Translations under genes and position numbers: made by a program
Source of the DNA: Candidatus Saccharimonadota bacterium
GTDB lineage: Bacteria; Patescibacteriota; Saccharimonadia; Saccharimonadales; UBA10212
Reading direction: 5' to 3'
Length of the DNA stretch: 64,000 nucleotides
Assembly: GCA_022841445.1 (NCBI GenBank)
Contig: JALHRM010000001.1
Coordinates: 387,777-451,776, forward strand
Part shown: positions 50,338-64,000 of the stretch, in pieces
Numbering within the stretch: position 1 is the stretch's first letter
Layout of the letters: each line of letters starts with the position of its first letter
Notes under the pieces: model-generated
Databases searched by the model: none
What the model saw: the letters and a program-made list of their open reading frames with translations, nothing else
Told to the model about the DNA's origin: nothing

Positions 50338-50366
50338 TTGACAACAGTAACGGTGCGGGGTACAAT
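50338..50366 (+). promoter_or_regulatory. consensus sigma70 promoter of the 16S rRNA gene
   Basis: TTGACA (50338-50343), a 17-nt spacer and TACAAT (50361-50366). Confidence 0.75.
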
Positions 50367-50419
50367 TGACTTCAATGTTTGTGAAGAGTCGTTTTTAAGG
50401 CGCTCTAAAAAACAGGACT

Positions 50420-50450
50420 TTAAAAATTTAGATAGTGCAAATCAACGTCA
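50420..50450 (+). other. 5' strand of the 16S processing stem
   Basis: TTAAAAATTTAGATAGTGCAAATCAACGTCA pairs over about 29 bp with 52309-52340 (TGACGTTTGATCTGCACTATCTAGATTTTTAA). Confidence 0.7.
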
Positions 50451-50569
50451 GTTCATTAGCACCATTTTTGGTGCGTTTGAATTGTTTTTTTCGAACAGAG
50501 CAATCTGTTCATATAAGTCAGTGTAACTTTAACTAGTTACATGTTCGATCTTAGTCAATAACAAATTCT

Positions 50570-52169
50570 TTTTTGGAGAGTTTGATCCTGGCTCAGGATG
50601 AACGCTGGCGGCGTGCCTAATACATGCAAGTCGAGCGGTAAGGCTTTCACAGTTTGCTTAAACGGTGAGACGAGACGCGGAGATTTTCCAACAGAAAAAT
50701 CAGCCGTATCTAAAACGAAGTGATGAACTTCGGTCTATCACTAATCCAAATCTAGGCAGAGAAGGAGTTTGAGCAAAGCGTGAAAGTACACGAGCGGCGG
50801 ACGGCAGAGTAACACGTAGGAACGTACCCCAAAGTGAGGGATAAGCACCAGAAATGGTGTCTAATACCGCATATTATCTTCGGATCAAAGCTTCGGCGCT
50901 TTGGGAGCGGCCTGCGTATGATTAGCTTGTTGGTGAGGTAATGGCTCACCAAGGCGACGATCATTAGCTGGTCTGAGAGGATGATCAGCCTGACTGGAAC
51001 TGAGAACGGTCCAGACTCCTACGGGAGGCAGCAGTAGGGAATTTTCCACAATGGGCGCAAGCCTGATGGAGCAACGCCGCGTGCAGGATGAATGCCTTCG
51101 GGTTGTAAACTGCTTTTGTCTGTGAAGAATATGACGGTAACAGACGAATAAGGACCTGCTAACTACGTGCCAGCAGCCGCGGTCATACGTAGGGTCCAAG
51201 CGTTATCCGGAATTACTGGGCGTAAAGAGTTGCGTAGGTGGTTTATTAAGCAAATAGTGAAAGCGTGGGGCTCAACCTCATAAACATTATTTGAACTGGT
51301 AGACTTGAGAGCGAGAGAGGTAGATGGAATTTCTAGTGTAGGAGTGAAATCCGTAGATATTAGAAGGAACACCGATGGCGTAGGCAGTCTACTGGCTCGT
51401 TTCTGACACTAAGGCACGAAAGCGTGGGGAGCAAACGGGATTAGATACCCCGGTAGTCCACGCCGTAAACGATGCATGCTAGCTGTAAGACGTATCGACC
51501 CGTCTTGTAGCGAAGCTAACGCGTTAAGCATGCCGCCTGGGGAGTACGGTCGCAAGATTAAAACTCAAAGGAATTGACGGGGACCCGCACAAGCGGTGGA
51601 GCGTGTTGTTTAATTCGATGATAAGCGAAGAACCTTACCCAGACTTGACATCCTGCTAAATTCTCCGAAAGGAGAACGTGCCTTCGGGCCGCAGTGACAG
51701 GTGTTGCATGGCCGTCGTCAGCTCGTGTCGTGAGATGTTTGGTTAAGTCCATCAACGAGCGCAACCCTTGTAGTTAGTTGAATTTTTCTAGCTAGACTGC
51801 CTCGGCAACGGGGAGGAAGGAGGGGATGATGTCAGGTCAGTATTACCCTTACGTCTGGGGCTACAAACACGCTACAATGGCCGGTACAAAGGGCAGCCAA
51901 GCAGCAATGCGGAGCAAATCCCATCAAAGCCGGTCTCAGTTCGGATTGCAGGCTGAAACTCGCCTGCATGAAGCTGGAATCGCTAGTAACGGTAGGTCAG
52001 CACACTACCGTGAATACGTTCTCGGGTCTTGTACACACCGCCCGTCAAACCATGAAAGTCACCAATACCTGACGTGTGGCCTTCGCGCCGCCCTAAGGTA
52101 GGGGGGATGATTGGGGTTAAGTCGTAACAAGGTATCCGTACCGGAAGGTGCGGATGGATTACCTCCTTT
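50570..52169 (+). rRNA. rrs: 16S ribosomal RNA (about 1600 nt, enlarged V1 region)
   Basis: AGAGTTTGATCCTGGCTCAG lies at 50577. CAGCAGCCGCGGTCATAC and GGATTACCTCCTTT (3' end) are also present. About 150 nt separate GTCGAGCGG from GAGCGGCGGACGG. Confidence 0.95.
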
Positions 52170-52308
52170 CTAGGGAGAAACTAAGCAAAGAAATGACATT
52201 AGTCGTTTCGGAAGCTAGTCGATACTGATACGCTGGTTTCGGAAAGTAAGAGCTTGCCAGCATATATCTCCTTTAAGGAGACAGTACTAAGTTCTTCTCG
52301 TATATGAT

Positions 52309-52340
52309 TGACGTTTGATCTGCACTATCTAGATTTTTAA
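52309..52340 (+). other. 3' strand of the 16S processing stem
   Basis: It is complementary to 50420-50450. Confidence 0.7.
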
Positions 52341-61574: not shown

Positions 61575-61676
61575 ACTACCTCCTACATTAATTTTAATAT
61601 TTCGGGTTACTCGCCCGACTTAGAGGCAGCAGTGGTTGCCGATACCGCCCAAAAGTCGATCGACTACACCCACCGC

Positions 61677-62234
61677 TTACCTGTGTGCTGATGTCCTATC
61701 ATCACGCAGGTCTGACTGGGTCTCATTATTAACCTGACGATTATCTATTTGCAAGCTTGTCGAATTCTTTGAATAGCTGGAGCCGTCACTTTTGATGTCT
61801 ATTTTCAGATTGGTACTACTGGAGTTTGTCTTAATTGTTTTATTGACTACATCATCATTTTCGCCATCAACTTCTTGGCCATTTATGGTGAAGGTTGTAG
61901 TCTTATCGCCTTCGTCAGCGCTCATGTTGGTTGACGAATCTTTCTTGATACTTACCGATGTAGAACTTTTGACTTTGGAAACACTATCTTCTGAGTTAAG
62001 TGAGGAATCGTCTGTTGAAGCGGCGTCAGTTTTTACCGTGAAACTACTTAGCGAGGCATCGTTACCAGTAGGAACCATTGCAATGGCCAATGCTGGTGTG
62101 AGAGCGAGTAGGGAAATGCCGGTAATAAGACCTGCCTTACGGGTTGAGTGAGGCGACATCACTAAAGACAGTGACGACTTTGCTACCCCATGCACCTTAT
62201 TAATACCCGAACGCAGTTTGTATATTACGGCCAT
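61677..62234 (-). CDS. secreted or anchored Ser/Thr/Asp/Asn-rich protein (185 aa)
   Basis: A GGAGGG SD and a signal anchor (LITGISLLALTPALAIAM) are present. The mature part is low-complexity. Confidence 0.55.
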   Translation of the reverse strand: MAVIYKLRSGINKVHGVAKSSLSLVMSPHSTRKAGLITGISLLALTPALAIAMVPTGNDASLSSFTVKTDAASTDDSSLNSEDSVSKVKSSTSVSIKKDSSTNMSADEGDKTTTFTINGQEVDGENDDVVNKTIKTNSSSTNLKIDIKSDGSSYSKNSTSLQIDNRQVNNETQSDLRDDRTSAHR

Positions 62235-62463
62235 TGTCCCTCCATAAAGCTTCAGTTACATAAGCTTTGTTGCAAGCATTGTAAAAGTATTGAAAAGTAT
62301 AAGACTGTAAGAATTCTTACACTACGATTCTATTTGGCGTAAAAGTCAAAATAAGGATAAGCAAGAACAATTTATTTCTTTTTACGCTTGTATCGGTTCT
62401 ATTATATTTATATACGTAATATCTAAGGTGTTAGAACGTAGCTATTTTTGCATCATAATATGC

Positions 62464-62492
62464 TTGACCACCTCTGTTTGAAATGGTATCAT
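62464..62492 (+). promoter_or_regulatory. sigma70 promoter of the 23S rRNA gene
   Basis: TTGACC (62464-62469), a 17-nt spacer and TATCAT (62487-62492), about 215 nt upstream of the 23S 5' end. Confidence 0.65.
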
Positions 62493-62707
62493 CGTATGGC
62501 TGCTTGAGTTTAGGCCAGAGGCCAACAGTAGTTCAGTAAGGTTTCCAGCGTAAACTCAAGCTCACAGTACCTAATGAACAAGGTCTGTTTAAAGTCTTTA
62601 TATGAAGGCGAGCTCAGGGTTTGTAACTTAACAATTTGGCGACACGAATAGAAAAGCAAATGACAACGGCATATTGGTAATTACCAATAGCTAGTCAATG
62701 CATAACG

Positions 62708-64000
62708 TAAAAAGTTACTCAAGCGCACACAATGAATGCCTTGACGTAAGACACCGACGAAGGACGTGATTGGCTGCGAAAAGCCACGGGGAGCTGCCGA
62801 ATAAGCTTTGAACCGTGGATGTCCGAATGGGGAAACCTCACTAGAGTCATATCTGGTGGCACTTGTCTGAATATATAGGACGAGAACGCGGTAACCGGGG
62901 GAACTGAAACATCTTAGTACCTCGAGGAAGAGAAAATAACCAATGATTCCGGGAGTAGTGGCGAGCGAAACTGGATCAGCCCAAACCTTAACCATTTCCT
63001 TCTGGCAATTTGCCGGATAGGATAAGTTGGTAGACGAAAATGTTTAAGGGGTTGTGACATACAAAAAACCAGTTCAGAGTTCTAAACTTGTTTTAGAAAT
63101 CTGAACTGCTGCAGGAACTACCAATGTCCTGCGTAAGGTTCGATAAAATTGCAATGCGAGCAGAACAGTCTGGAAAGACTGGCCATAGACAGTGAAAGCC
63201 TGGTATGCCAAGTGTTGCAAACCTTATTATTTGTATTGTCGAGTAGGTCGGGACACGAGAAATCCTGACTGAATCTGGGGGGACCACCCTCCAAGGCTAA
63301 ATATGTCTTACGATCGATAGTGTACAAGTACCGTGAGGGAAAGGTTAAAAGAACCCCGTAAGGGGAGTGAAATAGATCCTGAAATTATGTGCGTACAAGG
63401 AGTCGGAGCCCTTCGGGGTGACGGCGTGCTTTTTGTAGAACGATCCAGCGAGTTACTAGCATTCGCAAGCTTAAGCCATTTGGCGGAGGCGTAGTGAAAG
63501 CGAGCCTGAATAGGGCGATTAGTGGATGTTAGTAGACCCGAAACCGGGTGACCTAACCATGGGCAGGCTGAAGCGTCAGTAAAATGACGTGGAGGGCCGA
63601 ACCGTAGCATATTGCAAAATGCCCGGATGACCTGTGGTTAGCGGTGAAATGCCAATCGAACTCGGAGATAGCTGGTTCTCCTCGAAATAGCTTTAGGGCT
63701 AGCGTCGCGTGGTAACAAGTAGGGGTAGAGCTCTGTTTCGGACTGGGGGTCGCAAGATTACCCACCCCTGACAAACTACGAATACTACTTGCGGAATCGC
63801 GGCAGTTAGAACGTCGGGGCTAAGCTCGGCGCTCGAAAGGGAAACAGCCCAGACCATCATCTAAGGTCCCTAAATATATGCTCAGTGGGAAACGAGGTGA
63901 GATTTCTTAAACAATGAGGATGTTGGCTTAGAAGCAGCCATTCATTTAAAGAGTGCGTAACAGCTCACTCATCAAGAGATCTTGCGCGGAAAATGTAACG
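62708..64000 (+). rRNA. rrl: 23S ribosomal RNA, 5' 1.3 kb (continues past the window)
   Basis: AAGTTACTCAAGCGCACACAATGAATGCCTTGACG...GACGAAGGACGTG...TCCGAATGGGGAAACC...GGGGGAACTGAAACATCTTAGTA...AGTACCGTGAGGGAAAGG. Confidence 0.95.

Follow-up and report, generated by a model that had tools for sequence, protein, structure and literature searches.

Evidence for a modular three-unit rRNA locus with variable junctions in a Saccharimonadales bacterium

Introduction

Why should the genes for 16S and 23S rRNA of a small bacterial genome stand 10.5 kb apart, with seven protein genes between them and with the spacer tRNA-Ile and tRNA-Ala genes facing the other way? The question is raised by a 64,000-nucleotide stretch of the Candidatus Saccharimonadota assembly GCA_022841445.1 (contig JALHRM010000001.1, positions 387,777 to 451,776; the whole stretch is termed here the window, and all coordinates count from its first letter). 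An original prediction, made from the letters of the window, saw in it a formerly canonical operon that had been broken into independent transcription units, with an island of surface-protein genes between the rRNA genes. The locus is the single rRNA locus of a Saccharimonadales bacterium (Saccharibacteria, within the Candidate Phyla Radiation (CPR) or Patescibacteria) and lies just downstream of gyrB-gyrA. Our favored reading, to which we assign a probability of about 0.8, is that the locus as a whole is modular, being made of three units with variable junctions between them.

Results

Layout of the locus

The rRNA and tRNA genes were placed as follows.

50570-52169, + strand: 16S rRNA gene, 1600 nt, complete against the Rfam bacterial small-subunit model (model positions 1-1533)
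57625-57701, - strand: tRNA-Ile(GAT), functional copy (ARAGORN; 75.4 bits)
57902-57978, - strand: tRNA-Ala(TGC) (ARAGORN; 70.9 bits)
62708-64000, + strand: 5' 1.3 kb of the 23S rRNA gene (Rfam large-subunit model), which runs past the end of the window

The Rfam coordinates bear out that both rRNA genes lie on the + strand with the 23S about 10.5 kb after the 16S. The exact distance, from where the 16S ends at 52169 to the start of the 23S at 62708, is 10,538 bp, and the two genes are therefore unlinked in the sense of Brewer et al. (>1500 bp). ARAGORN likewise confirmed the predicted placement of tRNA-Ile(GAT) and tRNA-Ala(TGC) on the opposite strand; these two are the only tRNAs between the 16S and the 23S. 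Seven intact open reading frames (ORFs) occupy the same gap, four on the + strand and three on the - strand, and gene calling on a related contig, L118, independently gave these seven. A tRNA-Val(TAC), which is part of oral Saccharibacteria spacers, was not found in the gap by ARAGORN; the sole tRNA-Val in the window has the anticodon GAC and lies outside the gap at 22867-22943. No 5S gene was found within the 64-kb window. With its 10.5-kb gap, its - strand tRNAs that read Ala then Ile, and a terminator after the 16S, the locus does not have the form of a canonical rrn operon.

Upstream of the 16S lies gyrA, and upstream of gyrA lies gyrB. The best 80 gyrA relatives, taken from a collection with one genome per species, share 77-83% protein identity with the window protein and are nearly all metagenome-assembled genomes (MAGs) of Saccharibacteria/Saccharimonadales, with a few titles labelled otherwise. 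These relatives, together with the named homologs of the gap protein p194, which come from the same group, indicate that the organism belongs to Saccharibacteria. The order gyrB, gyrA, a small DUF212 gene and 16S (45305-52169) is kept across Saccharimonadales relatives. The gyrB-gyrA-16S order of the window mirrors the origin-proximal gyrB-gyrA-rrnO arrangement of Bacillus subtilis.

Predicted signals of the three units and their conservation

The 16S follows gyrA in nearly all of the best 80 gyrA relatives. Most of their short-read contigs stop inside the 16S, and 16 relatives are informative beyond it. The signals identified around the three parts of the locus in the window are these.

50338-50366, + strand: predicted 16S promoter, TTGACA-17-TACAAT (11/12 matches)
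50420-50450, + strand: 5' arm of the 16S processing stem, a long helix bracketing the 16S
52309-52340, + strand: 3' arm of the 16S processing stem, pairing with the 5' arm
52341-52381, + strand: predicted intrinsic terminator closing the 16S unit (13-bp hairpin, then a U-run)
57996-58024, - strand: predicted promoter of the tRNA unit, TTGTCT-17-TAGAAT (scan and conservation)
57464-57483, - strand: predicted terminator closing the tRNA unit (hairpin, then UUUUUU; -9.9 kcal/mol, z -3.3)
62464-62492, + strand: predicted 23S promoter, TTGACC-17-TG-TATCAT, with an extended -10 (scan and conservation)
62502-62561, + strand: 23S leader hairpin, CTTGAGTTTAG...GTAAACTCAAG (-27.8 kcal/mol, z -4.3; conserved in the alignment)

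The consensus promoter, flanking processing stem and strong terminator that had been predicted for the 16S are all present. A TTGACA-type -35 and a TAnnAT -10 occur at the matching relative position in most relatives for which upstream sequence was displayed, and the scan confirmed the match in L015 and L054. Within the bracketing helix, 50420-50445 pairs with 52315-52340 (26 nt, 92% complementary), and the core of the stem, TTAAAAATT..ATAGTGCAAATCAACGTCAG, is kept in nearly all relatives examined. The terminator hairpin, at 52341-52373, has a folding energy of -18.3 kcal/mol (z -4.1) and is followed by UUUUUAUUU. Right after the 3' arm of the stem, a hairpin with a T-run was found in 18 of 19 relatives (-11.6 to -20.1 kcal/mol) irrespective of spacer length, including those whose spacer measures only 0.76-1.0 kb. 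This hairpin keeps its position but not its sequence, as one would expect if it were a functional terminator.

The tRNA pair and the 23S carry conserved signals of their own. The motif TTGnnn-17-GGTAnAATAC.CGGTA or a close variant of it (e.g. GGTACAATACCG) precedes the first tRNA in nearly all of 19 aligned cassettes, in either orientation, and moves along with the cassette in all three tRNA configurations described below. The 23S promoter had also been predicted at 62464-62492, and it belongs to a block, GCTTkACm.CCTCTGT..TG.TATCAT, that is kept across at least 10 species, whether their rRNA genes are linked or unlinked; the leader hairpin and the leader downstream of it are conserved in at least 10 species as well.

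The distance between the rRNA genes varies widely among the 16 informative relatives. The 23S begins 0.76-2.3 kb after the 16S in nine of them, and the other seven have no 23S within the 6.8-8.3 kb available after the 16S. In the compact loci of L015 (763-bp spacer) and L054 (794 bp), promoter matches stand before the 16S, before the first tRNA and before the 23S. From this conservation we infer that the promoters and terminators predicted above would be functional, and that throughout the group there would be separate transcription units for the 16S, for the tRNA pair and for the 23S. Because relatives with spacers of 0.76-1 kb already carry the unit promoters and the 16S terminator, transcriptional autonomy appears to predate physical separation, which would be a secondary and variable consequence. 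The idea of independent transcription units thus has good in silico support from the signals conserved in relatives, with autonomy appearing to precede separation and not to result from it. An unusual breakage in this one genome is not what we found: the layout is the norm for Saccharibacteria and CPR (PMC7651992, PMC8172020, bioRxiv 10.1101/705046).

Several points weigh against the three-unit reading and the order of events attached to it. Promoter-like matches are not more frequent across the region than in shuffled sequence, so that the promoter calls draw their weight from conservation in relatives. Intrinsic terminators can be overridden by rRNA antitermination, and the hairpin that follows the 16S is for this reason no proof that transcription stops there; one relative, L011, is without a convincing terminator at this place. 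The autonomy-first order depends on a poorly resolved phylogeny, and the compact spacers could be secondary reductions.

The first two of these points bear directly on another explanation, in which the locus is still one operon: an antitermination complex loaded at the 16S leader would take polymerase past the terminators and across the 10.5 kb as far as the 23S, and the internal promoters would be minor or spurious, promoter-like hexamers being no more frequent than in shuffled sequence. rRNA antitermination is widespread, which lends the idea some plausibility. Yet of the nine gap genes, three that code for proteins and the two tRNAs are oriented against the rRNAs, and read-through would collide with them; conservation of the 23S promoter and leader block extends over more than 10 species at any spacer length; and the post-16S hairpin varies in sequence at a fixed position as a working terminator would. 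We consider a single operon unlikely on these grounds.

The 16S gene has further peculiarities. An expansion of ~132 nt in helix 6 (V1), at about 50650-50781, brings the gene to its 1600 nt; 16S genes of relatives measure 1463-1601 nt, and most of them fail to align over positions 76-216 of the window 16S. A 19-nt inverted match lies inside the gene (50643-50661 with 51246-51264). In L047, an insertion of ~590 bp (14122-14713) near the 3' end of the 16S, at window-16S position 1466/1467, resembles the rRNA insertions and introns reported for CPR.

Variation of spacer content and tRNA order among relatives

The gene content of the spacer differs among species and includes giant proteins of 1742-2180 amino acids. 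The tRNA pair occurs in three configurations: + strand Ile-Ala, the canonical order; + strand Ala-Ile; and - strand with Ile at the lower coordinate, the form of the window. A plain inversion of the canonical Ile-Ala pair was never seen in 22 loci. As to the original remark that the Ile/Ala order is not what a simple block inversion would give, several relatives carry a + strand Ala-Ile cassette, and the window arrangement is an exact block inversion of that cassette, promoter and terminator included, which explains the order.

Neighbor-joining trees of GyrA alone and of 16S alone were mutually conflicting and star-like, and were replaced by a bootstrapped tree of concatenated GyrB and GyrA from 17 taxa, in which the deep nodes are weak. 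Well-supported groups in this tree mix configurations, namely L037/L076 (100%), L023/L030+L033 (95%) and window/L036 (92%). At least 6-8 changes of configuration are needed among the 17 taxa, no fewer than with shuffled states, and configuration therefore changes often on this timescale.

Two relatives have, downstream of the tRNA cassette and ahead of a gene for a giant surface protein, very A+T-rich stretches with TGTGGATAA, a DnaA-box consensus (L002, ~14700-14860; L011, ~15000-15180). They could be an origin-like region inside the rRNA spacer.

A tRNA-Ile gene nested in a tRNA-Ile pseudogene

The tRNA fragments that the original prediction noted beside the tRNA pair are present, as is the terminator, and they resolve into a single pseudogene.

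57488-57520, - strand: 3' part of a tRNA-Ile pseudogene (T arm and acceptor strand); 57488-57506 is 79% identical to the 3' end of tRNA-Ile
57749-57789, - strand: 5' half of the tRNA-Ile pseudogene (acceptor, D arm, 5' anticodon stem); 73% identity over 41 nt to the 5' half of tRNA-Ile
57790-57893, - strand: 104-nt insert between tRNA-Ala and the pseudogene half, containing a hairpin; absent from the close relative L118

In L118 the 5' half is better preserved than in the window and reads GGGACTG-TAGCTCAGCTGGTTAGAGC-GCGTCACTGG. The 3' acceptor strand there is CAGTCCC (CAGYCCC in the alignment of the window with L118), a perfect complement of GGGACTG. The two parts are separated at the anticodon loop by an insert of ~230 nt that contains the intact tRNA-Ile, whose acceptor is GGGGTTA. 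Both fragments are shown by this alignment to be parts of a single tRNA-Ile pseudogene, which is divided at its anticodon loop and encloses the functional copy. The greater decay of the window copy relative to that of L118 indicates that the pseudogene is not under constraint. Similar wrapped tRNA fragments were found in L030, with a trace in L023. We read the nested tRNA-Ile as a probable relic of gene duplication or replacement at the site, a reading that fits the frequent reordering of the cassette.

Between the pseudogene halves, Rfam gave only sub-threshold matches to a group I intron or any other known RNA. The inverted repeats that flank the tRNA cassette are weak (13-18 nt, 72-86%) and were not accepted as support for a site-specific switch.

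Small elements recur around the cassette. The hairpin motif of the 104-nt insert, CGAAGCTTTTGCC..GGCAAAACGAG, is found again at the corresponding position of the distant relative L021 (7758-7787), with no further occurrence in 123 loci. Just downstream of tRNA-Ala in L030 (17499-17533), and also in L023, L033 and L096, lies a conserved minihelix of ~35 nt, GGGGGCG...hairpin...CGTCTCCACCA; with a G3:U70 pair and a CCA end it resembles a mimic of the tRNA-Ala acceptor and T arm, and it matches the ends of the transfer-messenger RNA (tmRNA) model (15.9 bits, E 3.5e-4). The minihelix is absent from the window. An element of ~50 nt that ends in inverted repeats, GTCATTCGAC...GTCGAATGAC, is present twice in the tRNA spacer of L030 (17412-17761) and has the look of a miniature inverted-repeat transposable element (MITE).

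Genes in the gap

The seven genes between the 16S and the 23S are the following.

52440-55811, + strand: p1123, multidomain, membrane-anchored (Pfam PF14099, 1.2e-36; PF07995, 1.9e-79)
55948-56574, + strand: p208, small secreted Asn/Thr/Gly-rich repeat protein with a signal-like N terminus
56660-57460, + strand: p266, membrane-anchored (hydropathy)
58096-58782, + strand: p228, membrane-anchored (hydropathy)
58843-60867, - strand: p674, large secreted repeat protein with an NTTGG[DN]ATxG motif and a C-terminal anchor; second gene of the p194/p674 cassette
60990-61574, - strand: p194, small secreted two-repeat protein; first gene of the p194/p674 cassette
61677-62234, - strand: p185, Ser/Thr-rich, membrane-anchored (hydropathy)

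A Kyte-Doolittle scan found an N-terminal hydrophobic segment, signal-peptide-like or a membrane anchor, in all seven proteins, and a C-terminal one in two of them as well; the prediction that all are secreted or membrane-anchored is thus reasonable on hydropathy. The p1123 protein combines a polysaccharide-lyase domain, a glucose/sorbosone dehydrogenase β-propeller, three Ser/Thr-rich repeat modules and a C-terminal anchor, and has an ortholog on L118 that is 90% identical. Pfam and NCBIfam returned nothing credible for p208, p266, p228, p674, p194 or p185, and a PDB sequence search, run with p674, gave no credible match. An AlphaFold2 model of the p194 family built from 51 sequences was unusable (mean predicted local distance difference test (pLDDT) score 44.8).

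The p194 family comprises 507 homologs, and every one with a source name is from Saccharibacteria/Saccharimonadales. On this distribution, p194/p674 would be a Saccharibacteria-specific two-gene cassette of secreted Asn/Thr/Gly-rich repeat proteins. In L030, L083, L084 and L104 the cassette is placed after the tRNAs and before the 23S, on the opposite strand, at 37-54% protein identity; a single contig of 5.9 kb, L084, has the order 16S, Ile, Ala, p674, p194, 23S, and in L096 the cassette adjoins the tRNAs after gyrA-16S-Ala-Ile. Other genomes have it elsewhere, between tRNA-Thr/Gly and tRNA-Asp/Arg (side listing L081-L117); no second cassette near tRNA-Thr/Gly was found within the window. Within the gap, p208 is a local paralog of p194 (44% identity). 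The close relative L118 was the only one in which p1123, p208, p266 and p228 turned up.

This restricted distribution, and the tRNA-Ile fragments that flank the intact tRNA-Ile much as relics left by integrative elements do, are what one would expect had a mobile element recently integrated at the spacer tRNA-Ile and split a canonical operon. Such a horizontally acquired island seems to us quite improbable. None of the seven proteins has an integrase or transposase domain (Pfam, NCBIfam), the gap has the G+C content of its flanks (0.44-0.52) with no shift in base composition, and, where an integrative island would have a direct repeat of the tRNA 3' end at its far border, the tRNA fragments are no more than 120 nt away from the intact gene and not at the borders of the 10.5-kb gap. 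The presence of p674/p194 in the same slot of distant relatives, at the identities given above, shows that this part of the gap is old, and the filling of the same slots by unrelated genes in relatives fits gradual accretion and not a single insertion. The term island consequently overstates how recent the gap is. Lacking both an integrase and a compositional break, the gap is better described as a mosaic of an old resident cassette and younger additions.

Independent contigs that span the gap

The arrangement itself is real. L118, an 11,844-bp contig in ENA from a different sample, was reached through a protein at least 90% identical to p194; it runs from inside the 16S to inside the 23S, is collinear with window positions 51874-63605 at 83-91% nucleotide identity, and has the same seven genes in order and the same reversed tRNAs. 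Four shorter contigs, L119-L122, overlap parts of the same structure. The gap proteins of the window and L118 are 83-95% identical, which points to maintained genes. Misassembly, the check that the original prediction had called for, is excluded by this independent 16S-to-23S contig. An assembly chimera, in which a contiguous 16S-internal transcribed spacer (ITS)-23S was wrongly broken and unrelated sequence joined at the conserved rRNA genes, draws on the facts that rRNA genes are classic misassembly sites in MAGs and that the contigs of most relatives end inside the 16S, but it can be set aside as extremely improbable given L118 and L119-L122, the single contig of L084, and L037, which was deposited as a whole chromosome and has reversed tRNAs and no 23S within 6.9 kb.

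Other features of the window

About 1.7 kb at 39250-41000 contains no ORF of more than 90 amino acids and no Rfam match, in a genome that is otherwise tightly packed and small. Three near-consensus matches to the DnaA box (TTATCCACT, TTATCCACC, TTATCCACT) lie within 375 bp (22424-22797) beside tRNA-Val(GAC). DnaA boxes are not enriched across the window as a whole (17 observed, 16.6 expected).

Discussion

In the modular three-unit reading, the first module would consist of a promoter, a 16S flanked by its processing stem and an intrinsic terminator; the second of a promoter, tRNA-Ala, tRNA-Ile and a terminator; and the third of a promoter, a leader hairpin, the 23S and, presumably, the 5S. 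Because no module would depend on read-through from its neighbor, the two junctions between modules would be free to accept genes and the small tRNA module would be free to invert, so that the tolerance of insertions and inversions at this locus would be explained. In the lineage of the window, the tRNA-23S junction would hold the old, clade-wide p194/p674 cassette on the opposite strand together with p185 and p228, and the 16S-tRNA junction would have gained p1123, p208 (as a duplicate of p194) and p266. The Ala-Ile module would have inverted as a block, and its functional tRNA-Ile would sit inside an older tRNA-Ile gene split at the anticodon loop.

A fuller history can be offered only tentatively, and we regard it as less likely than not: the Saccharimonadales rRNA locus would have been dismantled transcriptionally before it was dismantled physically, its junctions becoming a permissive landing zone for surface-protein genes, its tRNA module being flipped or reordered at least six times among 17 species, and its tRNA-Ile being replaced from within.

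The layout is real but ordinary for its lineage, a further and larger example of a described pattern. Three points were not stated in the literature searched: that a post-16S terminator and private promoters occur clade-wide even in compact spacers; that a self-contained tRNA cassette flips recurrently; and that a tRNA-Ile pseudogene encloses the functional copy. In practice, these bacteria will be missed or misjudged by methods based on long 16S-ITS-23S amplicons and by quality checks that take an operon for granted in MAGs; the amplicon problem has already been noted in the cited papers on such loci. In evolutionary terms, the comparison suggests an order for the break-up of rRNA operons, signals first and distance later, and, if transcript mapping were to bear it out, autonomy first would supply a concrete series of steps that lead from an operon to unlinked genes. 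Neither the practical nor the evolutionary point upsets current understanding. The spacer also emerges as a fast-changing slot for lineage-specific surface proteins, which are candidates for host attachment in episymbionts.

Comparison with known systems

The rrnO operon of B. subtilis lies downstream of gyrB-gyrA and has the order 16S-tRNA-Ile-tRNA-Ala-23S-5S in one transcript, with a spacer of a few hundred bases. The window resembles it in having gyrB-gyrA followed by the 16S, the same two spacer tRNAs and a long stem around the 16S. It differs in that each part has its own predicted promoter and terminator signals, the tRNAs have the opposite orientation and another order, and seven protein genes lie in between.

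Helicobacter pylori has its 16S and 23S in separate transcription units (PMC6582327), as is predicted for the window, where each of the two genes also keeps flanks suited to a processing stem. The H. pylori rRNA genes are far apart in the genome, whereas those of the window are adjacent, with a variable slot between them.

Surveys of unlinked rRNA genes offer a broader frame. Patescibacteria are among the clades with unlinked genes (Brewer et al., bioRxiv 10.1101/705046; ISME J 2020), and 27 of 34 closed CPR genomes were unlinked in the survey of Lui et al. (2021, PMC8172020). The window agrees with these surveys in its spacer of far more than 1500 bp, its small genome, its single rRNA copy and its membership of Patescibacteria. 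Its 16S and 23S are still neighbors, however, whereas in complete genomes with unlinked genes the two are on average about 410 kb apart (Brewer et al. and Lui et al.; bioRxiv 10.1101/705046, PMC8172020). The two Saccharimonadia genomes of Lui et al. were operonic (PMC8172020), unlike the window and about half of its relatives.

The closest parallel is found in oral Saccharibacteria of the same phylum, among them HMT-488 strain CM001 and TM7x. Their 16S-23S region contains tRNA-Ala, -Ile and -Val, the order of which varies, and between one and five protein genes that are variously oriented (Murugkar et al. 2020, PMC7651992), and tRNA-Val(TAC) is present in the spacer of "most all oral taxa" (PMC7651992), which is not a strict requirement. 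The window departs from them in its seven genes and 10.5 kb (theirs has 1-5 genes, and an amplicon across both rRNA genes measures ~5.7-7 kb), in having no spacer tRNA-Val(TAC), and in the opposite strand of its tRNAs. The cargo differs as well: secreted repeat proteins and a lyase/dehydrogenase fusion in the window, compared with pyrD and a 79-residue protein in the oral taxa. The TM7x spacer holds pyrD and a hypothetical gene (PMC12424978), and a conserved 79-residue protein is encoded between 16S and tRNA-Ala in this type of region (PMC7651992). What the two share is Ala(TGC) and Ile(GAT) in the spacer, transcribed in the order Ala then Ile, together with a variable tRNA order and spacer protein genes in various orientations.

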